Shown: piece after piece, positions 1 to 64,000 of the stretch
Numbering within the stretch: the stretch's first letter is position 1
Layout: each line of letters begins with the position of its first letter
Source of the DNA: Synergistales bacterium
Lineage (GTDB): Bacteria > Synergistota > Synergistia > Synergistales > JAFGMB01
Assembly (NCBI GenBank): GCA_963666205.1
Contig: OY762654.1
Coordinates: 1,632,001 to 1,696,000 of the forward strand
DNA length: 64,000 nucleotides
Reading direction: 5' to 3'
Translations under genes and position numbers: made by a program
Notes under the pieces: model-generated
The model's database searches: none
What the model was told of the DNA's origin: nothing
What the model saw: only the letters and a program-made list of their open reading frames with translations

Positions 1-286
1 CTGAAGGATAATAAGGAATCCTTCTTTCAAGGCAATTTCCCGAAGAATATAGAACGCCCGAAAGGGGTTCATTATAGTCAAATTTATTCTGGGCACCAGA
101 AGTACATAAGCCTGCTTTGAAACCGCATATCTCGTCTGAAGCAAGTCTTGAATGAAGATATGCCTTCTGAACCAAATAGGCTTCTGAGGGAGTTATTCCA
201 GGCTTCAGCATGGAAGCAAGGGGAATTTTTTCTCCATCTCTATACGCTTTGAATATCTGATCGGCAATTCTCTTTATTTCTCTCAT
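1..286 (-). CDS. 2-keto-4-pentenoate hydratase / fumarylacetoacetate-hydrolase family protein (runs off window edge)
   Basis: Manual translation MREIKRIADQIFKAYRDGEKIP...EAYLVQKAY...GFKAGLCTSGAQNKFDYNEPLSGVLY matches the MhpD-type N-terminus (AY.iQ, GxKxGLTS, EP..G.L). Not in the ORF track. Confidence 0.7.
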   Translation of the reverse strand, partial: MREIKRIADQIFKAYRDGEKIPLASMLKPGITPSEAYLVQKAYLHSRLASDEICGFKAGLCTSGAQNKFDYNEPLSGVLYSSGNCLERRIPYYPS

Positions 287-306
287 GGAAATGCTTTTGC
301 TCAATT

Positions 307-1392
307 TCATATTCTCCTTCCAGGATGAGGTATTGAGTTCTTTTCTATCCTGCCATTCTTTACTTCCCACACTGCTCCGGGCCAATTCTTTATGTTGTTC
401 TCTGCTGTGGCTGCAAATACCTGCCATGAACACTCAGCAAGAGATTTTACCATTACTTCCCTTCCCCGTTCATCGAGTTCTGCCGCTATTTCATCAAGAA
501 TGAGGATGGGTTTCCGTCTTAAACGCCTTTCAACAGCCCAGGCAGCAGCCAGCATCAAAGCCACAGACGCCCTTCTTCGATGGCCCCTGCTGAATTTTTC
601 AGAAGCATTCTGATCTCCGCAGGTCATTATAATATCGTCCCTCTGTGGACCAACCAGGGGTATCCTGTATTTCTGTTCTTCTTTCCGTCTCAGTTCAATG
701 GATTCCCAGAAATCCTGCAAAGGGTCTTCCACACCAATTGAACCTCCCCTTATATGTTTCAGATCCAGATTTCCGGGAAGAAGATCAGGAAAGGAAGAAA
801 GACCAGCACATACAAGATCCATGGCAGTTATCCTGGATGACCATATCCAGGATACAAGGGGAGCCAGAACCTTTGAAGTAATACCCGTATCCCTACCCTG
901 CTTAAGAAGTACAGTACGATGCCTTAATGCCCTTTTGCAGTCATTTAATCTGCTGGCATAAAGGGGAAAAATAAGGGCACATATCCTGTCCATATATCTT
1001 CTTCTTCCTGAAGGAGAACCATCTATCAGGGAAAGGTCTCCCGGGAGAAAGGCAAGGGCAGGGATTCTGGACCTGACCGATGAAAAATTGGATTTTTTCC
1101 CATCACAGCTGATAATATTACTGGAACCCATCGCAGTATATATCTCAATATGTTCTTCTCCAGCAAAAAATCCCTTCATAAGAGTCTGTTCAGAAGGCTG
1201 GTTCCAGTTAACAAGAGATGATTTTCGAAGTGACCTGAATGGCCCCCACCCAGTAAGAAGATGCAGAGTTTCAAGGGTATTTGTCTTCCCTGAACCGTTC
1301 TCACCAATAAGAAGATTAAGCCCCATGGACCATTCAAGTCTCTGGGGCTTAAGATTTCTGAAATTACGGTTTGCAGAAGATATGCAGTACAT
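307..1392 (-). CDS. recF: DNA replication/repair protein RecF
   Basis: NFRN, Walker A GENGSGKTN, GPQRDD, ILILDEIAAELD; lies downstream of dnaN. Confidence 0.95.
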   Translation of the reverse strand: MYCISSANRNFRNLKPQRLEWSMGLNLLIGENGSGKTNTLETLHLLTGWGPFRSLRKSSLVNWNQPSEQTLMKGFFAGEEHIEIYTAMGSSNIISCDGKKSNFSSVRSRIPALAFLPGDLSLIDGSPSGRRRYMDRICALIFPLYASRLNDCKRALRHRTVLLKQGRDTGITSKVLAPLVSWIWSSRITAMDLVCAGLSSFPDLLPGNLDLKHIRGGSIGVEDPLQDFWESIELRRKEEQKYRIPLVGPQRDDIIMTCGDQNASEKFSRGHRRRASVALMLAAAWAVERRLRRKPILILDEIAAELDERGREVMVKSLAECSWQVFAATAENNIKNWPGAVWEVKNGRIEKNSIPHPGRRI

Positions 1393-10327: not shown

Positions 10328-11173
10328 TTATTTCTTTTCGAATTCTTTTACTGCCTTGCTTACCGTTGAATAATGGACCCCGAAATGATTTCCAACTTCC
10401 TTAAGGGTGAACTGACCTGAAAGATATGCCCTTGCCATAGCTTCTTTGCGGTTTGAATATTCAACATCAAAGTATTCGAAGGTTTTCATGGGATTTTTTT
10501 TCTGTCCCCATGGAATTTCTGAAAGGTCTTTTCCAAAACTGTAGTTTTCCTGGAGTTCAGCAATAAATTCTGCACTTCCCAGGAAAACCTGGTGCCTTAT
10601 CTCCTTCTCCAGGTCCATTCTCAATTTTAAACCCTCTTCAACAAATTCCATGTAAAGGGTTCTGGCCAGCTTCTTTGATCTGTCAAAACAGGAAAGGATC
10701 GGGTCGACGTTGAGCCATTTCTCTCGGGCATCAAGTCCGGCAGTAGACCGGTAACTGCTCCATGGATAATCTTCGGCCTTTTCTGTTATGTTTGCCAGGA
10801 CGGGGGTAAGGGCTACATACCGCGCAAGTTCTTTGAGGTAAGCTTTTTTTTCTACCAGGATGGATTTGAATCTTCCCTGGAACAGATGTCCTGCCCCGTC
10901 ATGACGACGGTTGAAGGTCTGGGTGTAGACTCCGTTAAGCAGGCGCATGCCTTTTGAGAGATTTGCCTCGGGGGTTTCAATGATCAGATGGTAATGGTTT
11001 ATCATCAGGCAATAGCCGTGACATATCCATCCCATTCTTGAAATGGTATTGCCCAGGATATCAAGAAATACTTCCCTGTCCTCCCCATTCATGTAAATAT
11101 CCTGTTTTGCGTTTCCCCTTGAGGTTATCAGATACAGGGCGCCTTTGAATTCAATTCTTAGTGGTCTGCTCAT
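10328..11173 (-). mobile_element. HUH Y1 (RAYT / IS200-like) transposase with C-terminal HTH
   Basis: MSRPLRIEF, ITSRGN, YCLMINHYHL (HUH), GHLFQGRFKS, YPWSSY, C-terminal TLKEVGNHFGVHYSTVSKAV; end-like motif caagacctgacccc at 11206-11219 with a degenerate inverted copy at 10303-10316. Confidence 0.85.
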
Positions 11174-11254
11174 GGTTACAGGATACATCAATAATAATAT
11201 TATTCCAAGACCTGACCCCATATGGTTGAGACCGAACCTGAGGGGCGGGGGGTG

Positions 11255-14582: not shown

Positions 14583-15074
14583 ATGACGGTAAGGATAAAC
14601 ACCCCTCTTATGGGGGAAGTGGATGTGGAGGAGAAGGACCTACTCTTTTTCCCGAGAGGTCTGCCGGGCTTCGAAAAACTGCACCGCTGGGTACTGGCGG
14701 GAGAGGACGATGATTGTATAAAGTGGCTTATCTCAGCCGACCTAGGCCAGATAACTCTGCCGGTGATGGACCCGGTTCTGGTGGATTCCCGTTATTCCCC
14801 CTCTATTCCGGTAGAAGTGCTGGAAGAACTGGAGATAAGGGAATTTAAGGATGCTCTTGTGATTGTTATCCTTAACATTCCCCGGCAGGAGCCCTGGAAG
14901 GGAACGGCCAATCTTCTCGCACCCCTGGTGATAAACCCCGTGAGCCGAAGGGGCAGACAGGTGGTTCTCTATGACGAACGCTACAGCGTCTATTCTCCGC
15001 TGATTTCCGAAGGGGAAGTGCCCCGGGTAGAAACCGGAGAGCCGGAGACTTGCGAAGAAAAGGAGAATAACTGA
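14583..15074 (+). CDS. fliW: Flagellin-sensing CsrA antagonist FliW
   Basis: FPRGLPGFE, TANLLAPLVIN, GRQVVL; translationally coupled to csrA (TGATG). Confidence 0.92.
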   Translation: MTVRINTPLMGEVDVEEKDLLFFPRGLPGFEKLHRWVLAGEDDDCIKWLISADLGQITLPVMDPVLVDSRYSPSIPVEVLEELEIREFKDALVIVILNIPRQEPWKGTANLLAPLVINPVSRRGRQVVLYDERYSVYSPLISEGEVPRVETGEPETCEEKENN

Positions 15075-15328
15075 TGCTTGTCCTCACCAGGCGCAAGGGT
15101 GAAAGCATAGTTCTGGATGTGGGCAACGGCATAGAGATAACCGTCATTGAAGCGGGCAACGGATCAGTAAGGCTGGGCATAGATGCCCCACGGTCGGTGG
15201 ATGTGTGGAGAAAGGAAGTGCTCCTCCAGGTGCAGGACTCCAACAGGACGGCAGCCCAGCTGCCCGAAAAGGGCCTGGAGGGTTTACAGAACCTCCTTAA
15301 AAAGCGAAGCCATACCCAGGAAGGATAG
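15074..15328 (+). CDS. csrA: Carbon storage regulator CsrA (FliW-type, extended C-terminus)
   Basis: [27 protein letters not shown]-x-x-A tail. Confidence 0.95.
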
Positions 15329-15447
15329 ACACAGGGTAATGGAAGCCCTTGAGGGTTCAGAAACACTGGAGTCTGTTTATCAAGCCCATTCCTTCAGGGA
15401 TGAGACCTGGAAGCAGTATGATCCTAAAAATCCTTATGATTATTTTT

Positions 15448-15476
15448 TTGTTTCCAGAACTCAGGACTCTTATATT
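15448..15476 (+). promoter_or_regulatory. sigma70-like promoter upstream of flagellin
   Basis: TTGTTT-N17-TATATT. Confidence 0.4.
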
Positions 15477-15499
15477 TCTCCACGAGGGGCAGGGTCCTG

Positions 15500-15580
15500 C
15501 CGGCGGATTTTGCCCGGAAGTGCTCACTCGGGTGCTTCGGATTCCACGGAAGGAATTTCAAACAACTTACAAGGAGGTTT
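15500..15580 (+). promoter_or_regulatory. CsrA-binding leader of flagellin mRNA
   Basis: Six GGA motifs in about 70 nt; ACGGA in the loop of hairpin attcc-acggaa-ggaat (15541-15556); AAGGA overlapping the SD. Confidence 0.75.
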
Positions 15581-15587
15581 CAGCAAT

Positions 15588-17879
15588 ATGCGTATTTACC
15601 ATAATATCAATTCCATGGTAACCCAGAACAGCCTCAAAACTAACGACAGTTCCCTTTCCAAGTCTCTTACCAGGCTTTCCACAGGTCTCAGGATCAACAG
15701 TGCTGCCGACGATGCAGCAGGACTCGCCATCTCCGAGAAGATGAGGGCCCAGACCTCAGGACTTGACCAGGCTGTGAGTAACTCCCAGGACGGCATTTCA
15801 CTCATCCAGACCGCAGAGGGTGCTCTTAACGAGACCCAGTCCATTCTTCAGAGGATGAGGGAACTCACCGTCCAGGCTGCCAATGACACCCTTACTTCCA
15901 ATGACCGCCAGGCTATGCAGGGTGAGATCGACCAGCTCACCGAGGAGATCGACCGCATTTCCGACACCACTACCTTTAACACCAAGAAGCTCCTGGACGG
16001 TTCCGCTTCTGCTCTGACCTCAACAGATAACGCCAATACAAGCGTTTTCGCAAGGGGTTCCGTAACCAATGAAGGCAACTACAAGATCTCCGTTGATCTT
16101 CTTGAAGCAGGTGTTGGCCAGGTTCAGAAGAGCGACGTTTTCACCATAAAGTCTGATGTAGATGCAGTAGTTGACAAGACAATTGACTCCAGTGCCGGAA
16201 TTACCCAGATGGACGCTTCAAGTCTGGCTTATGATACCTATACCATTAAAACAGACGCTTCTGAAGCTGCAGCTGGAGTAGCATTCGCAATCACAGATTC
16301 TTACATTCAGAATACTGGTGGCGGAGCGACCGATATCTTTGATGGAGATCTTGCAATAGGGTCAAATGCTGTGGATATCAATGCTTCCATTTCGATGGAA
16401 ATTACCGATATCACCGGTGCGGATGTTACTGTTGCGTGGGAAAGTTATGAAATGGCTGCTGATGGAACAACCACCACTTACAGTGGGACCTATACCTGGG
16501 ATTCCGATGGAGCAGATGCTGCTGATGTGGTTTTTGGTACCGTTAAACTGGATATTGCAGGTGGTGGTGGTAGCGGATCAGCCGATATTACAAACCTTAC
16601 TGTTGGAGATAAAAGCATCATAACGCAGTCCGGAGACAACGGAACTGCTGCCCACGATGCCATTACTGTTACTCAGGGAACGGCTGATGCTGCGGCCAAG
16701 TTCGTTTTTGCCGAAGATCAGTTTGACAATGGTACTGCCACAGTCAGCATGTACACAATGGATGCTAATGGAGAAGTTTCTGAGGGTACAATCAGTTTCG
16801 AATTCGGTTCAATGGTTTCTACAGATCCGGCCGCATCTTTTACATATGGCATGTCCGAGGGTGATGTGGCGACTTCAAGCACAACCCTTAAGAACGTTGA
16901 TGCATTCTACGATGCATCAGGGACTTTTCTGCTTGAAGACCCCCAGACCCTTACCATAGTGCAGGGCGATGGACAGAAGGCAACCGTAACCCTTTATGCT
17001 GATGATACTTTGGGCGATGTAGAAACAAAACTTAACGATGCCCTGAAGTCAACCCTTAACCAGGGTGATTATGTCGGTCTTGCAGATAGCGAAAATCTCG
17101 TGCAGTTTATCGACAAAGGTGAAGTTGTTGCCAATACCAATTTCTCAACCAATGGAAACTTTGTTATCAGCAGTGCTGTTACCGGAGCGTCTGGTGAATT
17201 TAATTTCATTGGCGATGAGGCCCTTATAAATGCTATGGGACTTACCGAGATCCAGGCAAGCCAGGAAAACCGCTTCTCACTAGATGTTACTGACGCCCAG
17301 ACAGGGTCTTTCATTGCAAGCGGAGTTGAGCTCACAAGCAACACCCTTGTTGGTGTCGTGGATGCCAACGTGGATGTCCAATTCGACAAAATGGCAAATA
17401 CTGCAGTTTCCTGGGATTCCACCAATAAGGGATGGACAGTGGCAAGTGATACGGGTTCAACCGACATCAACATACACATCGCAGCCCATTCCACCAGGTT
17501 CCAGATCGGCGCAAATGAAGGCGAAACCATGAGCATCGATCTTGGCAATATGTCAGCTGCCGCCCTTGGTGTTGCTAATATTCTTGTTACCGATCTTGAC
17601 AGTTCTTCCCGCTCCATAACAGTTCTTGACAATGCTATCAATAAGGTATCCAAACAGAGGGCGGGCCTGGGTGCTTACCAGAACCGTCTTGAGCACACCA
17701 TCAATAACCTGAGCACGGCCAGCACCAACCTCACTGCTGCCGAAAGCCGTATCCGCGACGTTGACATGGCTGCAGAGATGACCGAGTTCACCAAGAACCA
17801 GATCCTCATGCAGGCTGCCAATGCCATGCTTGGTCAGGCGAACCAGCTCCCACAGCAGGTCCTCTCTCTTCTCAGGTAG
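15588..17879 (+). CDS. fliC: Flagellin (763 aa, large hypervariable region)
   Basis: MRIYHNINS after [62 protein letters not shown]. Confidence 0.97.
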
Positions 17880-18410: not shown

Positions 18411-18464
18411 TATAGAGGCACTATATATAGGGATTTAATTTTGCTGTTCACAGAATGAGAGAGT

Positions 18465-18550
18465 TGAAAAAGGCAAAACCGTCGAAAGGCGGTGACGCAA
18501 AGCCACGGATCTAAAGCCTTGTAAGGTCATGGTAGCCGGGTTGCCGAATA
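18465..18550 (+). ncRNA. c-di-GMP-I (GEMM-I) riboswitch aptamer
   Basis: GGCAAA-ACCGTC-GAAA-GGCGGT-GACGCAAAGC...TCTAAAG...CATGGTAGCCGGGTTGCCGAA: GNRA tetraloop, receptor and conserved junctions. Confidence 0.95.
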
Positions 18551-18607: not shown

Positions 18608-18718
18608 ATTCATCCGATACCAGGATAAAATAACTTGTTTTAAATAACGTTATTTATGTTAGAATAAGTTTCATGTTAAGCGATGAACAATTTCTCAAAT
18701 TCTAGGGATGGTGAAAAT

Positions 18719-19213
18719 ATGTCCATGTACTTTTATTATGTCGGGCGATCTGTAAGGATCACTCTGCTTGACCCAGACAACTATATCTACATGGAACGGG
18801 TCAGGTGTCTTGCTTCCTTTGTTTCTGAAGCAGTGGAAAAGTGGGAGCGGTCTTGCGATCCATCTTTAAAAAGTACAGATTTGCCAAAACATCTTGCCTA
18901 TGTCCTACGCAAGCTTGCTGAAATGCTTCCTTATGACGATATCAAAAAAATCCCCGAGCAGAGTTTCTACAAAAACGCGTCTGTCCTTCTGCATAGTTCA
19001 GGTAAGACTAGGTCGGAACATGCTTTGAAGATACTTTGCGAAGGTTTTGCCAGGATCCAGAACCGCCTGGACCATGGACTTAAACCCTTTGATACCTGGA
19101 CCCTGATGCCTATATTGGAGATCCAGCAAACAGGAATAAAGGATTCTGTTGCAGGTAAAAGGATGTCCTTTCTGGAACGGAAAGACAAAACCCCATTGCT
19201 TCTGGCCAATTGA
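18719..19213 (+). CDS. Riboswitch-controlled hypothetical protein (164 aa)
   Basis: ORF directly after the riboswitch terminator; GGTGA RBS before ATG 18719; no family recognised. Confidence 0.7.
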   Translation: MSMYFYYVGRSVRITLLDPDNYIYMERVRCLASFVSEAVEKWERSCDPSLKSTDLPKHLAYVLRKLAEMLPYDDIKKIPEQSFYKNASVLLHSSGKTRSEHALKILCEGFARIQNRLDHGLKPFDTWTLMPILEIQQTGIKDSVAGKRMSFLERKDKTPLLLAN

Positions 19214-20040: not shown

Positions 20041-20616
20041 TTATGAACTCTGCTCAATATTGACTAATTTCATGAACTCATTGTCTTTGAGATCTGAAAG
20101 GTTCCTGTAGATGAGGTTCTGCTCGGGAAAATGGAGCCCTTCCCGGAAGGCTGCGGTCCTGATGGAATTTAAGAGATCCTTTCGCACAGTTTCCTCGAGG
20201 GGAAAGAGTTTTCTATCTCTGGTGAGGGTGTATTGTTCGTAGGTCTTAAGGCATGCCTTTTTGTATCCCCTGTTCTGGTCCCTGTAAAAGAAAAGAGCTT
20301 CGGTTGCTGAAATGCCTGATCTCTGAAGAACTTTCTCCAATATATATACGTGATCTTCGGGAAAAAAAAGGTCCCTATCGATCTGTGATGGGGCGAGAAA
20401 GAACCTTTCGCCTGCCAGTTCCCTGAAAATGGAGGCGAATTCTTGCAGGAAAATGTTGAAATTCTCAAGATCCCTGTTTCGAAGTGAGGCAAGCTGAACC
20501 TCTTTTTGCCACTCCTTCATCCTGTAACCTGGTTTCCTTCCAGAGAAACTTTTACCCTTCTTATTGGGAGGGGTATTTTTATCCTCTATGTTTTGAAGGT
20601 TTTCCGGATATTTCAT
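20041..20616 (-). CDS. Hypothetical protein under a sigma28 promoter
   Basis: GGAGG RBS; promoter at 20659-20685. Confidence 0.7.
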   Translation of the reverse strand: MKYPENLQNIEDKNTPPNKKGKSFSGRKPGYRMKEWQKEVQLASLRNRDLENFNIFLQEFASIFRELAGERFFLAPSQIDRDLFFPEDHVYILEKVLQRSGISATEALFFYRDQNRGYKKACLKTYEQYTLTRDRKLFPLEETVRKDLLNSIRTAAFREGLHFPEQNLIYRNLSDLKDNEFMKLVNIEQSS

Positions 20617-20658
20617 TGAGTGTACCTCCCTGCGGAAAAGATGGCTCCATACGCTTAA

Positions 20659-20685
20659 GTATCGGTATTTGGATGGGTTAATTTA
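20659..20685 (-). promoter_or_regulatory. sigma28-type promoter
   Basis: TAAA-N15-ACCGATAC. Confidence 0.75.
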
Positions 20686-20768: not shown

Positions 20769-21257
20769 TTGAAGGACATAAATAATGTAGTTGAGAATCT
20801 TGCCTTTGTAGATTCTTCCGGGAAATTCATAGATGGTGCGGATTTTGCGAACCTTAACCTGAAGTTTCCCAGGCTTGAGAGGCTTCTGGATGACATTATG
20901 AGAAGGAATGAATTTAGCCGTCTCATTTACCAGTCCAGAGAGAGCATGGGGGAGGTATGGATAAGAAGGCTAGACAGCAAAGGGAACTTCTGGAAAGTAT
21001 GGCAGGAAAGGGAAATAGATGGAGAAAGTGAGGAAAATCCCTCCATACGGTTCATCTATCACCCTGACCATGGTGTGGTCCGCCCTGTGGACTATGCAGA
21101 CCCTTTTGTTCAGCTGGAGGGGAACAGGCGCACGGCCCAGCTTCTCATCTCGTCTTTTCTTACCCACTGGCTTTCGGGAGTCCTTGTGCTTGCTGAGGAA
21201 AGAGATACTTTCAGGGGTCTTGAGGAAGTGGTCGAAATGGAGAGGGATCTGTTTTAG
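20769..21257 (+). CDS. Hypothetical protein, DUF1249/DUF6908-like
   Basis: NPSIRFIYH...ISSFLTHWL resembles the DP.m.irv.H...ln.FL..WL pattern; GGAGG RBS with TTG start. Confidence 0.5.
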   Translation: MKDINNVVENLAFVDSSGKFIDGADFANLNLKFPRLERLLDDIMRRNEFSRLIYQSRESMGEVWIRRLDSKGNFWKVWQEREIDGESEENPSIRFIYHPDHGVVRPVDYADPFVQLEGNRRTAQLLISSFLTHWLSGVLVLAEERDTFRGLEEVVEMERDLF

Positions 21258-21447: not shown

Positions 21448-22476
21448 TCAGAAAACCTCCCAGGAATTGCAGAATTCCCTTATTTCGGGATTCTTTCTGA
21501 TTTTTTCCATGCTTCTGTTCACAATGCTGCGGATATGCTCAGAACTCTTTCCGTAGACCTTGGCGATGTCAGCCAGTGTCTGGCATTCGTATATTCCCAG
21601 GCCGAAACGCCTGCATAGTACGTCAAATTCCTTTTTGTTGAGTTTGTCTCTCAGAAGATCCAGAGCTTCCTGGCGGAACAGCTGTTCTTCGTCCGGGGGG
21701 GCGTAAAAAGTTTCGCCCAGAGAATTGTCATCCATATAGCCGTTGCTGTTGCCCATTTTTTCAGGACTCAAAGAGAATGAACCCTTTCCCGATTCTTCAG
21801 GATAATCAATGGAAATAGTAGATGCCGATATCCTTACCAGGGCCTTGAGCCTTTCCAGGTCAATGTCCTTGGGAATAGATTCCAGTTTCCCCTCCTTGAA
21901 AGCCTGGATATGTTCCGACATGATATGCACAGAAGTTCCTGCATATCCAGGAACGCTGAATCCGTGACGGTGTTGTACCAGGGCGATCTTTATGCACTGG
22001 TATATCCAGGGTATCCCATAGGTGCTGAACCTGGTATTTCTTTTGTAGTCAAACCTTCTTACAGCTATCATAAGACCCAGAATGCCCTCCTGTACCAGAT
22101 CCATGAAGGATAGTATGCTCTGGTGGCCCATACGATCCCTTATCTTCTTTGTACAGGCTATGACCAGCCTGAGATTGGCCAGGACGAACTTCTGGAAGGC
22201 TTCTCTGTCGCCTTCCTCCTGAATGCGCCGCGAAAGTTCTTTCTCTTCTCGGGGAGTCAGGAGAGGTATGTTTCCTACCTGGGAGTGAAAAAGCTCGTAA
22301 ACTGTCTTAAGGGCTTCCCGGTCTTCTTCCGAGTCTACTGTGATCTCTATGATATCTCCTTCATCCTTTCCAGGCTGAAGTTCCAGAGATGTATCTATCC
22401 ATGAGGAATATGCCTCATGGGGTTTTCTTTCCTTTGACGACAATAATGATATGGTCCCCTGTTTCTTCCTTGACAT
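21448..22476 (-). CDS. Divergent RpoD/RpoS-like (group 2-type) sigma70 factor
   Basis: Region 1.2 IPLLTPREEKEL; region 2 ANLRLV, DLVQEGILGL, RFSTYG.PWI; region 4 RFGL...TLADIA; no region 1.1. Confidence 0.88.
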   Translation of the reverse strand: MSRKKQGTISLLSSKERKPHEAYSSWIDTSLELQPGKDEGDIIEITVDSEEDREALKTVYELFHSQVGNIPLLTPREEKELSRRIQEEGDREAFQKFVLANLRLVIACTKKIRDRMGHQSILSFMDLVQEGILGLMIAVRRFDYKRNTRFSTYGIPWIYQCIKIALVQHRHGFSVPGYAGTSVHIMSEHIQAFKEGKLESIPKDIDLERLKALVRISASTISIDYPEESGKGSFSLSPEKMGNSNGYMDDNSLGETFYAPPDEEQLFRQEALDLLRDKLNKKEFDVLCRRFGLGIYECQTLADIAKVYGKSSEHIRSIVNRSMEKIRKNPEIREFCNSWEVF

Positions 22477-22518
22477 TTTCCCGGCTCCTTCCCTGGATCC
22501 GTCACTGCTTTCTTTTAG

Positions 22519-22547
22519 TTATCGGCAGTAAGGAGGGGGGTAATTTA
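22519..22547 (-). promoter_or_regulatory. sigma28-type promoter of the sigma-factor gene
   Basis: Perfect -10 GCCGATAA with TAAA 17 nt upstream. Confidence 0.65.
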
Positions 22548-22643
22548 GCTTATCTGTATGAATCTGTTTAAAAGAACCCTCTTTTCCCATCTTCATTTAT
22601 AGGTTAGATTAGAAAATGAATATTAGACAGGGAGGGATGAGAC

Positions 22644-22961
22644 ATGGATAGAACCGGAAAGGTGATAAGAAAACTTCCTTCTCCTGAAGCTCTGAAAACA
22701 ACCAGTGCTCTCTATGACAGAAAAGGGAATCTTGCACAGACCGGAGAGACCACCGAAACAGCGAACCTGGAGCATATAGCTTATATCATGGAGAGGCTGT
22801 CTGCTCTCTACGGAAGAATAGTGGAGACAAGGGTCCTTCCCGGGGAGATAGCCTTCTCAGACGAAGATGGAGAACTTGTAAGGATCTCAGCAGTCAGGGC
22901 CCTGTCTATGGTAGAGGATATCCGTTTTCTCCTCTCCCCCGTCCTGGACCGTAAGGCCTGA
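22644..22961 (+). CDS. FlaG-like protein
   Basis: C-terminus DEDGELVRIS...MVEDIRFLLSPVLDRKA resembles the FlaG tail; GGAGG RBS. Confidence 0.45.
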   Translation: MDRTGKVIRKLPSPEALKTTSALYDRKGNLAQTGETTETANLEHIAYIMERLSALYGRIVETRVLPGEIAFSDEDGELVRISAVRALSMVEDIRFLLSPVLDRKA

Positions 22962-27635: not shown

Positions 27636-27814
27636 AAATAATTTCCTCCAGTTATAAATAATAACATTATAAACAACGTTTTTCCATATAACCTTAATTA
27701 ACAATGCATGACCTTTTCATTGTTTTTTACACAGGGAACTGTTGCTGAATGCTTGTATTCCCGATAACAGAACTAGATCTCCCGGATAATCCGGGTCGAG
27801 ATGGAGGTATGAAA

Positions 27815-30292
27815 ATGTCAAACACATTTTCGGGTCTTGAGATAGGCAGACGAGCGATGAATTATTTTAGACAGGGCATAGAGACTGCTGGTCATAACAT
27901 AAGCAATGCGGATGTTGAGGGTTATTCGCGACAGACTGTAGAGGCTTCTCCTTCAACACCTTTCACTGCTCCGGGTCTCAATAGCGGGGGGCAGCCCGGG
28001 CAGATAGGAACAGGAGTGGATATCGACGCCATTTCAAGGATCAGGGATTCATTCCTGAATTCCCAGTACTGTCAGGAATCCATTGAGGGAGGTTTCTGGG
28101 AGGCTGCCAGCAGAACCATGGAATATCTGGAGATGTTCATTGGAGAACCCTCGGATAGCGGTATTTCGGCGGTTATGGAGAATGTAAACCAGGTTCTGCA
28201 GGAGCTTCAGAAAACGCCTGATTCCAGCATTACCAGGGAGTCTTTCATAAGCGAAGTTGACAATCTCTGCAGTCTTATAAATCACACCTACAGGAACATG
28301 TCAGAATATCGTGTTTCCCTCAATCAGGAGGTGGAGGTAAAGGTTCAGGAGGCAAATGTTCTTATTGAAAGAATCGCATCACTCAATGGCCAGATAGAAA
28401 CGGTAATGGGCATTGGGAATAACCCCAATGATATTATGGATCAGAGAGACAAACTGGTGGAAGAACTTTCCGGACTTATCGATATCTCCGCCTACTCCAG
28501 CGGCGATAAGGGTGCTGTGAACGTAAGTCTGGCTGGAAGGTTGCTTGTACAGCAGAGCCAGAGCCGCCATCTTCTGCTTGTTCCACAGGAAGGAAACTCA
28601 GGATTTTACGATGTGCAGGTGGAGGACAACGAATTCGATTCTTCATCTCATCCCGAAACAGCCTCAGCAGCCATAGGAAGGGAAGCAGTGGAGGGCATTT
28701 ATAACATTGAGATAAGCAGGCCTGCAACAGAATCCTTGTGGGCCATAGGTAAGGGTTATGACACCGGTATTGCTGATTCAGCGGACACAGCCCTTGGTAT
28801 AGAAGGTTCCTTTTCGCTCCAGGTGGGAGTTGATGGTTTCAGGGGAGTATCTTCAAGCATTTCGGGGGGAGTTCTTCTGGAAGCTCCTTCGGGAAATTCA
28901 CCGCTTAACTACTCCTTCCGGATCGCTGCAGGTTCAGAGGAGCAGATAGCGACTATAAACTGGGACGATTCTACAGTCCCTGGACATTGGACCATTGACG
29001 GGACTGACGTGGGGAGTGAACTCGATCTCACAGAACTGAGAGATTCCATAAATAGCCTTTCCATGAACATTAATGTTTCTCTGAATGCTTCGGGAGATAA
29101 GATATTCTTTTCTGAAAATAATGGTTTCATGGTTTCCCTGACGGACCTGGAGGGGGACCTGGTTTCCGGTATGGGTTTCGAAAAAACCTCTCCCAGCGTG
29201 GACATTTCCATATCCGGTACAGATTCTCTTCAGACCGTAGCCAACAAGATCAATAGCTTATATGATATTACTTCTGGCGGAGGCCCGGATTCCCCCCATG
29301 AATGGTTGCATGCCAGCGTTGAGGAGGCAGGGGACGGTTCTTTCTTTCTCATGCTCGAGAGTAATTCCGTAGGGGAGAGTTACAGGATAAATGTTGGTTC
29401 TGCCGGCGGAGGAAGCCTTGAGATAGCCAGACTTCTCGGTCTGGTTGATGGAAATGGTGCAACAAAGATCATCAGGAATTCAAATGATGCCCTTCTGAAA
29501 GTGAACGGCATGGAGTACCTTTCCTCAGTTAACTCCTTCTCGGAGGCACGCCTCATAACCTCTTTCAATTCATACAGGGCAGATACCCTCCAGACTGTCA
29601 TACAGGGTGTGAAACTGGACATAAAGGAAAGTTCGACAGGATCTTCCACTGATATAAGGGTGGAGCGGCATGTGAATGGCGGTTTCATAGAGGGCCTGCT
29701 TCAGTCCAGGGATGATCTGGTAACGGGAGCAATGGATTTTCTCAACAGTTTAGCCATGTCCCTTTCAGATCAGTTCAATGCTGTTCATTATTCAGGACAT
29801 GGATCCGGAAATCAGAGTCAGACAACGGGAATATCACTTTTTGAGCCTCTTTCATCTAAAAATAATTCCGCCCTGTTCCTGGCAGTAAATCCCGAGCTTC
29901 TTGCCGATTCCAGACTCCTTGCCGTTACGGGAGACGACGGTCTGGGCTCAAGCCTGGGCAGCGGTGACGGATCAAGAGCCCTTCAGATGATCGGTTTCTT
30001 TTCGAACCCTGTTTTTGACGGAGGTGCATCAACTCTGGATGAATATTACATCTCCTTTGTTGCATCCCTGGGATCCCAGAGTCGGCAGGCCAGTATCATG
30101 TACGATAACCAGCAGACCCTTATGGATCAGATATCCAACCAGAGGCAGTCTATATCGGGAGTAAATATTGACGAAGAGATGATGGATATGGTCCAGTACC
30201 AGCAGTCATATCAGGCAATTGCCCGGTACATCACGGTTCTGGACGAGATGCTGGACATGGTTATTAATGGGATGGGGTTAGTGGGAAGATAA
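27815..30292 (+). CDS. flgK: Hook-associated protein FlgK (long form)
   Basis: GHNISNADVEGYSRQ, GQIGTGV, PNDIMDQRD, SGVNIDEEM. Confidence 0.95.
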   Translation: MSNTFSGLEIGRRAMNYFRQGIETAGHNISNADVEGYSRQTVEASPSTPFTAPGLNSGGQPGQIGTGVDIDAISRIRDSFLNSQYCQESIEGGFWEAASRTMEYLEMFIGEPSDSGISAVMENVNQVLQELQKTPDSSITRESFISEVDNLCSLINHTYRNMSEYRVSLNQEVEVKVQEANVLIERIASLNGQIETVMGIGNNPNDIMDQRDKLVEELSGLIDISAYSSGDKGAVNVSLAGRLLVQQSQSRHLLLVPQEGNSGFYDVQVEDNEFDSSSHPETASAAIGREAVEGIYNIEISRPATESLWAIGKGYDTGIADSADTALGIEGSFSLQVGVDGFRGVSSSISGGVLLEAPSGNSPLNYSFRIAAGSEEQIATINWDDSTVPGHWTIDGTDVGSELDLTELRDSINSLSMNINVSLNASGDKIFFSENNGFMVSLTDLEGDLVSGMGFEKTSPSVDISISGTDSLQTVANKINSLYDITSGGGPDSPHEWLHASVEEAGDGSFFLMLESNSVGESYRINVGSAGGGSLEIARLLGLVDGNGATKIIRNSNDALLKVNGMEYLSSVNSFSEARLITSFNSYRADTLQTVIQGVKLDIKESSTGSSTDIRVERHVNGGFIEGLLQSRDDLVTGAMDFLNSLAMSLSDQFNAVHYSGHGSGNQSQTTGISLFEPLSSKNNSALFLAVNPELLADSRLLAVTGDDGLGSSLGSGDGSRALQMIGFFSNPVFDGGASTLDEYYISFVASLGSQSRQASIMYDNQQTLMDQISNQRQSISGVNIDEEMMDMVQYQQSYQAIARYITVLDEMLDMVINGMGLVGR

Positions 30293-63084: not shown

Positions 63085-63894
63085 TCACACGGCGATCTCA
63101 AGTATCTGGACCAGCCTTTCCTTGAGTTTGGAGAGGACTCTTTTGTGAAGCTGTGAGATCCTGGATTCTGAAAGACTGAACTCCACAGCGATATCATGAA
63201 AGTTCCAGTACTTGAAGTAATATAGGTAGATAAGCTTTTTTTCCCTCTCCGTAAGATCGTTCATTGCCTTATAAAGCTTCTCTATTTCATCCATGTTTTC
63301 TGTAACTTCTTCAGGCCCGGGTTCATCTCCTGTAAGAATAGAGCTCTTGCTCACTTCAGAATCTTCAAGGACCAGCTCCTCATCAAGAAAACCTATGTAA
63401 CTCCTGTTGGCTATCTCCAGGACTTCCCGGAACTGTTCCTCCGACATGCCCAGCTTTTCCCTGAGCCTCCTGTTTGAGACCTCTCCGGTTTCCTGCAGAA
63501 CCTGTTCCGATGCTTTTTCCAGCGCATGAATTTTTTCCCGTCCTGTGCGGGATATCCAGTCGAACCTTCTCAATTCGTCCAGGATCGCTCCCCTTATTCT
63601 GGAAGCTGCATAGGTCTGAAAGGCATAACCCAGGGCAGGGTTGTAACGGTCGATGGCATCAAGGAGTCCCATGTTTCCATAACTTAGGAGATCATCATAA
63701 TCAAGTTCTCGAGGAGGGGAGATGTTTGTCCTTCGAATGACGAATCTGACAAGATACTGATATTTTTCTACCAGTTCCTTCTGGATCATTCTTCTATCCA
63801 GACTGAGTTGAGGGCAAAGTTGATATCTTTCCCAGAGATCCCTCTCGGCGTTTCTGTCAAAATCCGATCTTGTCTTTCCAACTTTCTGCCGCAT
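63085..63894 (-). CDS. fliA: Flagellar sigma factor FliA (sigma28)
   Basis: FQTYAASRIRGAILDELRRFDW, LSESRISQLH; GGAGG RBS before ATG 63894. Confidence 0.93.
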   Translation of the reverse strand: MRQKVGKTRSDFDRNAERDLWERYQLCPQLSLDRRMIQKELVEKYQYLVRFVIRRTNISPPRELDYDDLLSYGNMGLLDAIDRYNPALGYAFQTYAASRIRGAILDELRRFDWISRTGREKIHALEKASEQVLQETGEVSNRRLREKLGMSEEQFREVLEIANRSYIGFLDEELVLEDSEVSKSSILTGDEPGPEEVTENMDEIEKLYKAMNDLTEREKKLIYLYYFKYWNFHDIAVEFSLSESRISQLHKRVLSKLKERLVQILEIAV

Positions 63895-64000
63895 GGAATA
63901 CCTCCAAAGGGCCAAATTAAGAAACAAAATAAACATCATTATAAATAACATAAATACAAACGAAAGTATAAACTAATATATACATTTATGCAATAAGGTG

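Follow-up and report, generated by a model that had tools for sequence, protein, structure and literature searches.

What does a second RpoD-like sigma factor do in the middle of a flagellar gene cluster? The question is raised by a gene, here called sigmaX, in a 64,000-nucleotide stretch of DNA from a Synergistales bacterium (the window; G000:C1:1632001-1696000 of a complete 2.95-Mb genome). The window opens with dnaA, dnaN and recF and is otherwise mostly one flagellar and chemotaxis cluster. Textbooks present flagellar gene hierarchies as a model for the ordered expression of genes, and a previous sequence-only reading had placed sigmaX within such a hierarchy, as an RpoD/RpoS-like sigma factor with altered DNA recognition residues whose gene is driven by the flagellar sigma factor FliA (sigma-28). 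The elements of this proposal withstood the comparative tests reported here, which support a FliA-driven sigma factor of unusual predicted specificity and suggest the promoter of the nearby flagellin gene as its candidate target.

The sigmaX protein matches the Pfam models for Sigma70 regions 1.2, 2 and 4, all above their cut-offs. The match to region 2 (PF04542), the part for core binding and -10 recognition, spans residues 99–166 at 39.3 bits (cut-off 24), and that to region 4 (PF04545), the helix-turn-helix (HTH) that reads the -35 element, spans residues 277–328 at 40.9 bits (cut-off 24.1). No Pfam match to region 3 (PF04539) or region 1.1 (PF03979) was obtained. The part corresponding to region 3 forms three short helices in an AlphaFold 2 (AF2) model built from 41 sequences, and SigA alignments pass through it with low similarity. 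The mean predicted local distance difference test score (pLDDT) of this model is 69, with values of about 90 for sigma2 and sigma4, and its closest folds in the PDB are SigA and sigmaS. The top NCBIfam models were those for RpoD (NF006666, 113.2 bits, cut-off 572) and RpoS (TIGR02394, 113 bits, cut-off 378.7), neither of which is passed; the FliA/WhiG model TIGR02479 was not among the best 25 of the 44 NCBIfam families. The Pfam regions, best models and best folds all bear out the assignment to RpoD/RpoS-like sigma factors. SigmaX nevertheless differs from RpoD/SigA and RpoS by scores far under the cut-offs, by the missing region 1.1, by altered regions 2.4 and 4.2 and by the presence of a separate, canonical host RpoD (G000:2433165-2434442). 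Altogether, the genome contains six sigma-70-family genes, namely RpoD, FliA, three of extracytoplasmic function (ECF) size and sigmaX.

The altered strings that had been pointed out in regions 2.3–2.4 and 4.2 are present in sigmaX, as RFSTYGIPWIYQCIKIAL at residues 150–166 and KSSEHIRSI at residues 310–318. Their canonical counterparts, FSTYATWWIRQAITRAI and VTRERIRQIEAKALRKLR, were verified by alignment in solved SigA chains, and exactly these two strings are found in the host RpoD, which therefore carries canonical 2.4 and 4.2 residues. Residues F150, S151, T152, W157, I158, Q160, S311, E313 and R316 are invariant among 41 aligned family members; Y153 (35/41), P156 (31/41) and K or R at position 163 (34/41) are less strict. 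Hence, the altered recognition residues are fixed in the family and do not represent drift. One detail of the earlier residue picture did not hold: C161, within WIYQCIK, is private to this genome, and 28 of the 41 members have R at that position. In what we take to be the Escherichia coli numbering of this alignment, the equivalents of F427, T429, Y430, W434, Q437, E585 and R588 are retained. Replaced in the family are, in the same numbering, W433 by P, R436 by Y, T440 by K or R and R441 by M, I or V, and in region 4.2 R584 by S and others and R586 by H, Y or F, with Q589 being variable.

A search of 5.8 billion proteins returned 44 clusters at E <= 6e-45, the next ordinary RpoD following at 6e-31. 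The source organisms given by the databases for these homologues belong to the Synergistota (Synergistales, Thermovirgaceae, Thermovirga lienii), and one source lists T. lienii DSM 17291 as bearer of a family member. We surveyed 201 sampled Synergistota genomes and found strong orthologues (E <= 3e-85) in eight of them (G000, G135, G080, G144, G170, G075, G022 and G176), which represent three families. All eight encode FlhA, compared with 125 of the 201 genomes overall, and in genus g29 the only FlhA-positive genome among seven, G176, is also the only one with sigmaX. The gene stands at a conserved place in the order fliW-csrA-flagellin, u176, HTH gene, u191, u162, sigmaX, u105, u297 and flgN-J-I-H-A, which is kept in the genomes and in those metagenome contigs that are long enough. 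The metagenome loci were retrieved using an alignment as query; a single-protein query gave none. No mobile-element genes were found in this island. Pseudogene-like drift, which the sequence-only reading had named as a possible refutation, was looked for and is ruled out: the orthologues are full length and conserved, and a TGA inside the six-frame match of G075 is not a break, as it sits upstream of the real start. Taken together, sigmaX is almost certainly a sigma-70-family factor under selection, and as such it would be expected to bind core RNA polymerase and to confer a promoter specificity of its own.

The sigma-70 phylogeny suggested earlier was run as a quick maximum-likelihood tree of 46 rows (LG+G4), in which branches were assessed by the Shimodaira–Hasegawa-like approximate likelihood ratio test (SH-aLRT) only and for which a long-branch warning applies. 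The whole sigmaX family (23 rows, SH-aLRT 100) lies on a stem of 1.54 and is separate from the clade of Synergistota RpoD (10 rows, 96). Its flagellar members, the sigmaX proteins, group in one clade (12 rows, support 99). The sister clades share with sigmaX the signature FST[YC][GA][IV][PS]WI and the missing Pfam match to region 3. They differ from it in their neighbours, and they have neither the GCCGATA promoter nor the leader described below. Two sister-clade loci (L210:5696-7240 and L213:9824-10825) adjoin genes for a type IV secretion system (T4SS) coupling protein and TraC/VirB4-like proteins. The homologue in G026 (5e-47), a genome without FlhA, belongs to the non-flagellar clade and adjoins an integrase fragment, AbiEii and a restriction-modification methylase; L123:9422-10543 is also listed among the nearest sigmaX relatives outside the flagellar clade. 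The sister clades thus point to a sigma factor family on conjugative or integrative elements.

The promoter claimed for sigmaX was a perfect GCCGATAA, a sigma-28-type -10 element, about 45 nucleotides (nt) upstream of the start, and we found it 42 nt before the ATG. Taken alone this motif is not significant, because about one copy per window is expected by chance (one found, 1.07 expected from shuffles, at least one in 67 of 100 shuffles). The combination TAAA-N13-19-GCCGATA is expected 0.15 times in the window, and CCGATA occurs 33 times compared with 18.5 expected, a count reached in none of 100 shuffles. The significance of the promoter motif comes from its conservation at a fixed distance from the start: [G/A]CCGATA[A/C] lies upstream of sigmaX in all eight genomic and all 17 metagenomic loci (at least 43% identity), that is, in 25 of 25 orthologous loci. 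Several of the metagenome loci duplicate genomes, and the distinct leaders number 15. A -35-like box (CTAAWT/GTAATT) is kept in most orthologues at 12–13 nt from the -10, counting an 8-nt -35, and the GTTT half of the sigma-28 -35 is poor. At 12 more distant sigma loci and at the G026 homologue, both the -10 motif and the leader were absent. The same -10 also precedes flgK (4/4 loci), u148 (3/3) and u191 (4/7). In the case of flgK, the start is probably not at the listed 27749: an ATG at about 27815 (MSNT...; window 27761-27817, plus strand), with a Shine-Dalgarno (SD) sequence and, at 27761-27767, a CCGATAA -10-like site before it, agrees with the MS.TFSGLEI starts of the orthologues.

To see which sigma factor is likely to read this element, flagellins of relatives without sigmaX are informative. 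The comparison covered the 14 best-scoring flagellin-like genes of nine flagellated Synergistota genomes lacking sigmaX; a tenth, G149, gave no flagellin match, and weaker FlgL-like matches (L140-L144, L151, L152, L154-L159) were left out. Half of these genes (7/14) are preceded by a TAAAGTTT-like box and, after 11–12 nt, by GCCGATAA, GCCGATTA, TCCGATAT or a close variant. A weak TCGATA precedes one further gene, and the other six show nothing obvious within 200 nt. FliA sites from chromatin immunoprecipitation in E. coli are built alike, as in TAAAGTTT...GCCGATAAC in the excerpt of PMC4183435 consulted. Because the flagellin promoters of the relatives match this site form, CCGATA is best read as the FliA -10 in Synergistota. 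A fliA gene lies in the window as the presumed reader, and sigma-54 (PF04552) was not found in genome G000. On the basis of this motif conservation, we consider it probable that transcription of sigmaX depends on FliA. The promoter spacer (window 22527-22537, minus strand) contains CCCCCCTCCTT; in the E. coli tar FliA site TAAAGTTTCCCCCCTCCTTGCCGATAAC from the same excerpt (PMC4183435), the spacer consists of the same 11 letters. This match may be a coincidence or reflect a preference for C-rich spacers.

Between promoter and start codon, the sigmaX leader contains the ACGGA, AGGGA and AAGGA motifs previously regarded as possible binding sites of CsrA; in the terms used here, the GGA motifs at 22482-22503 are ACGGAU, AGGGA and AGGAG. 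The leader CGGATCCAGGGAGGGAnCCG is conserved in all 25 loci in the form CGGATCC-AGGGAG-GGAnCCG, ending 3–8 nt before the ATG, and 16 of 50 alignment columns are invariant among the 15 distinct leaders. A 7-bp hairpin, mismatched at its centre, can be drawn for the leader, and the loop of this hairpin, AGGGAG, overlaps the SD sequence. The proposal that these are CsrA sites stands as regards the conserved GGA leader and the adjacent csrA and fliW genes. It does not stand as regards covariation of the hairpin, which is not significant (90.5% of cells paired, one compensatory cell, 90 of 500 shuffles equal). The hairpin is compatible with the data, and sequence conservation dominates. With at least two GGA motifs, positions in the loop and over the SD sequence and csrA present in the genome, the leader has the pattern of a CsrA-controlled mRNA; CsrA control of sigmaX translation is plausible, the chances for and against it being about even. 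Similar elements stand in front of flagellin. Across the phylum, flagellin leaders combine an AAGGAGG SD sequence with a hairpin whose loop contains A[ACU]GGA[AUC], and in the window the hairpin with an ACGGAA loop (15541-15556) and AAGGAGG (15571-15577) both resemble CsrA sites. Downstream of the sigmaX leader, the N-terminus M[SG]RKKQG..[CS][FL]L (residues 1-14; window 22435-22476, minus strand) is kept in the flagellar clade despite predicted disorder, and a GGA motif (AUGUCAAGGAAG) lies within the first codons. The constraint on this stretch could concern the peptide, the RNA or the two together.

A candidate target of sigmaX emerged from the flagellin gene of the same island. The listed flagellin open reading frame (ORF), 15183-17879, is too long, and from the true start at ATG 15588 no CCGATA was found within 330 nt upstream in G000. 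All nine sigmaX-linked flagellin loci (G000, G135, G080, G144, G022, G075, G176, L195 and L196) instead have TGTTT-N17-TATATT with invariant spacing, replacing the sigma-28 promoter, approximately 100–110 nt before the ATG in most cases. The -10 is TATAAT in G080 and TATCTT in G075; (C/T)T(C/T)T precedes the promoter and GCCGGC follows about 22 nt after it. Among the 14 flagellin genes of sigmaX-less genomes, none has TGTTT-N17-TATATT. R584, E585 and R588 are residues which we take to contact the -35 element, and the loss of R584, R586 and Q589 with E585 and R588 kept would fit a -35 that retains TTG and in which ACA is changed to TTT. Furthermore, three loci of family f6 have a chemoreceptor (methyl-accepting chemotaxis protein) gene between u105 and u297 with TGTTT-N17-TATACT or TAAACT. 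From these observations we infer that flagellin is somewhat more probably than otherwise a target of sigmaX.

Several further features of the flagellin and chemoreceptor genes were recorded. The 5′ leader of flagellin (window 15480-15515, plus strand) opens with a hairpin whose stem varies and whose palindromic GCCGGC, apparently in the loop, is invariant in 9/9 loci; the hairpin was compared at L117, L118, L120, L124, L190, L191, L195 and L196 and is possibly a stability element or a protein site. At 763 aa the flagellin itself is unusually long, and much of its central part is variable. Flagellin_N also matches, more weakly, a 975-aa open frame shortly beyond the window (G000:1699775-1700182, minus strand), which is probably FlgL-like. 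At the chemoreceptor position, G135 has a gene preceded by TTGTGA-N17-TATCAA, and G000 has none. Promoter-scan matches upstream of u162 in L118 and L122 were rejected, as they lie inside the u191 coding region and reflect coding conservation.

The most economical model joins these elements in a chain from FliA through sigmaX to flagellin, and we give it a slightly better than even chance. It is built on the observed family membership, conservation, synteny, co-distribution and promoter motifs. FliA–RNA polymerase would start at the conserved CTAAWT-N12-13-GCCGATA promoter, making sigmaX a late (FliA/sigma-28-dependent) flagellar gene, and the GGA motifs over the sigmaX ribosome-binding site may allow translation to be gated by CsrA and FliW. 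SigmaX would in turn direct flagellin transcription from TTGTTT-N17-TATATT, which occupies the place of the sigma-28 promoter of other Synergistota, and might also serve the neighbouring chemoreceptor gene in some genomes. CsrA and FliW would possibly act on both mRNAs; the predicted readers of both promoters and the predicted binding of CsrA follow from sequence comparison. A more far-reaching version is a four-tier hierarchy in which a sigma factor domesticated from a conjugative element has become dedicated to flagellin via the new TTGTTT -35 and FliA has ceased to transcribe the flagellin gene directly. Production of sigmaX would then require both active FliA and titration of CsrA by FliW, with the chemoreceptor gene also being read in some genomes. 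We advance this version tentatively, rating its chances as somewhat below even.

A number of observations weigh against the chain from FliA through sigmaX to flagellin, and some of them favour a different reader of the flagellin promoter. The -10 hexamer TATATT/TATAAT is RpoD-like, as is the 17-nt spacer, so that reading by RpoD from a weak -35 is possible. SigmaX might accordingly be FliA-driven without having flagellin as its target: RpoD would read a weak conserved sigma-70-type promoter, CsrA and FliW would exert the main control, and sigmaX would read other promoters, such as those of u162, u105, u297 or the HTH gene, which belong to an island strictly linked to it. Borrelia flaB is said to be such a case, controlled by CsrA/FliW and transcribed by RpoD. 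SigmaX also keeps Y153, W157 and Q160 as RpoD does, and no wider regulon emerged from our scans. The gene-proximal pattern TGTTT-N17-TAnA[ACT]T occurred 12 times at N17 compared with 2–17 times at other spacings, without genome-wide enrichment; this spacing scan dropped flagellin itself, as the spurious ORF 15183-17879 overlaps the flagellin promoter. The flagellin pattern with one mismatch was found 28 times in G000 and 40 times in the reversed control, and scans for strict or one-mismatch TGTTT-N15-CTTATAT and for a 15-position pattern gave no enrichment over controls. With no enrichment of TGTTT-N17, the sigmaX regulon would therefore comprise only one or two genes. On the other hand, TGTTT is invariant in the nine linked loci, and TTGTTT matches TTGACA at three of six positions; a generic sigma-70 scanner makes no call there. 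Of 31 upstream regions of host tRNA genes, 24 contain TTGNNN-N16-18-TANNNT, with TTGAC[ACG] in 13 of the 24 and TTGTTT in none, and the upstream regions of the island genes yielded no alternative motif common to them. We therefore regard transcription of flagellin by RpoD as rather unlikely, and continue to prefer sigmaX as its reader. The remaining points against sigmaX in this role concern single genomes, the protein and the sampling. In G080, the flagellin promoter has a CCGATA hexamer in its spacer, without TAAA at the right distance, and G170 has sigmaX and no flagellin gene that could be found in its 92% complete assembly. W433 of the conserved tryptophan pair is P in sigmaX, a change that could bear on promoter melting. 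Contigs from three metatranscriptome runs of one study, which contain 6–7% of the sampled words and cannot show starts or levels, cover parts of flagellin, a riboswitch, u176 and the HTH gene, and none lies on sigmaX. Finally, the families with sigmaX may represent a single lineage and possibly one transfer in addition, and because of this phylogenetic clustering the co-occurrence of promoter and sigma factor may amount to only one or two independent events.

Two further explanations would remove sigmaX from FliA control or from flagellar gene control as a whole. GCCGATA might be an autoregulatory -10 of sigmaX or an unrelated element, sigmaX then not standing below FliA. The single copy expected by chance in a window of this size, a spacer of 12–13 nt compared with 11–12 nt in the sigma-28 promoters of the relatives' flagellins (1–2 nt longer) and the failure of Pfam to detect FlgM (PF04316, E <= 0.1) in the genome, though FliA is present, are in line with this idea. 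The same -10 before flagellins of flagellated sigmaX-less genomes and before flgK here, a FliA above its family cut-off and the fixed distance of the motif to the start throughout the orthologous loci make an element not read by FliA improbable. Alternatively, sigmaX could be a passenger from a conjugative element with no role in flagellar gene control, as might be suspected from the T4SS coupling-protein and TraC/VirB4-like genes next to the sister clades, the integrase fragment, AbiEii and methylase beside the G026 homologue and the long stem of the whole family outside Synergistota RpoD. A passenger would not be expected to occupy the same cluster position in three families and 17 metagenome loci, to occur only in FlhA-positive genomes and to carry a conserved flagellar-type promoter and leader in an island without mobile-element genes, and we consider this explanation very improbable.

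Compared with known systems, the late promoter of sigmaX is of the TAAA...GCCGATAA type, as in the FliA class 3 tier of enterobacteria and Bacillus, for which flagellin is the typical target also in the sigmaX-less relatives. Here, the sigma-28-type promoter precedes another sigma factor gene, and flagellin has a different promoter; FlgM was not detected by Pfam in this genome. We know of no described hierarchy in which flagellin is read by a factor other than FliA, sigma-54 or a housekeeping sigma factor. A literature search covering titles and the beginnings of abstracts outside subscription journals returned nothing on a flagellar sigma factor of Synergistota or on a FliA-driven sigma factor that reads flagellin. 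The nearest described wiring, as far as the excerpts consulted go, is that of Clostridioides difficile, where SigD positively controls tcdR, the gene of a second sigma factor (PMC3865298). The likeness lies in a flagellar sigma factor controlling the gene of a sigma factor with a narrow regulon; in contrast to sigmaX, which is RpoD-like, located in the flagellar cluster and proposed to act on flagellin, TcdR is a group-5 factor for toxin genes outside the flagellar regulon. Hag-FliW-CsrA flagellin homeostasis has been described in B. subtilis (PMC6529632) and C. difficile (PMC8523840). The likeness to it consists of fliW and csrA before flagellin and of GGA motifs placed both in the loop of a hairpin and across the SD sequence, with a similar element in the sigmaX leader; a sigma factor mRNA as second, candidate CsrA target is not part of the system as described in the excerpts of these two papers. 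If the proposed chain is correct, a FliA-driven second sigma factor beside a flagellin gene with a swapped promoter would be a new wiring solution that adds a tier, a natural case in which a handful of substitutions in region 4.2 re-tune the -35 specificity, and an example of core cellular machinery taking over a sigma factor from a mobile element. In the four-tier version, transcription and translation of flagellin would both answer to one secretion checkpoint.

Table 1. Positions of sigmaX, its candidate regulatory elements and related features (window coordinates unless a locus is named)
Feature	Position	Strand	Remarks
sigmaX gene	21448..22476	-	342 aa, diverged RpoD-like sigma-70-family protein
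sigmaX protein regions	residues 1-53; 50-171; 178-217; 219-261; 263-338		disordered; sigma1.2 + sigma2; short sigma3-like; disordered linker; sigma4
Sigma-28 (FliA)-type -10 GCCGATAA of sigmaX	22519..22526	-	42 nt between -10 and ATG at 22476
-35-like box CTAAAT	22543..22548	-	TAAA at 22544-22547; TAAA-N17-GCCGATAA, or TAAATTAC-N13-GCCGATAA
Leader element CGGATCC-AGGGAA-GGAGCCG	22482..22501	-	candidate CsrA site; overlaps Shine-Dalgarno sequence 8 nt before ATG
fliW	14583-15074	+	directly upstream of csrA
csrA	15074-15328	+	directly upstream of flagellin, 6 kb from sigmaX
Flagellin promoter TGTTT-N17-TATATT	15449..15476	+	proposed sigmaX target
Flagellin gene	15588..17879	+	true start ATG 15588
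u191	20041..20665	-	coding sequence 20041-20616, family unassigned; own TAAA-N15-ACCGATAC promoter-like site
u162	20769..21257	+	no family match; convergent (tail-to-tail) with sigmaX
u105	22644..22961	+	small conserved protein, divergent from sigmaX; weak FlaG likeness (E=0.029, below cut-off)
fliA	63085..63951	-	TIGR02479 FliA/WhiG 194.9 bits, cut-off 189.6; presumed reader of GCCGATAA promoter
Chemoreceptor promoter sites, family f6	L118:8747-8838, L122:4731-4798, L121:8906-9043	minus strands

Among the neighbouring genes, u162 shares its distribution exactly with sigmaX, in eight of the 201 genomes. It is highly conserved, as in IRPVDYxDP and QLLIASF.HWLS, and its product is a candidate partner of sigmaX. 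A complex prediction for sigmaX(50-342) with u162 gave a score of 0.00, under the mark, and weighs neither way. In the promoter-like site of u191, CCGATA lies at 20660-20665. Pfam and NCBIfam searches of the island proteins at E values up to 5 gave sub-threshold matches only, of u297 to HTH_17 (E=0.0023) and of u148 to DUF327 (E=0.03). An ORF resembling IS200/Y1 transposases, with HTH_28 as its C-terminal domain, borders the flagellar cluster at 10328-11221 on the minus strand. A cyclic di-GMP-I riboswitch (RF01051, 89.9 bits, gathering score 35) was found at 18462-18548 on the plus strand, with a terminator-like hairpin after it. Both precede u176 (18683-19213; family unassigned), and the aptamer is also recognizable before the u176 orthologues in L117, L120, L122 and L118. 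Many metatranscriptome contigs of other organisms pile up on the riboswitch at 18464-18520.

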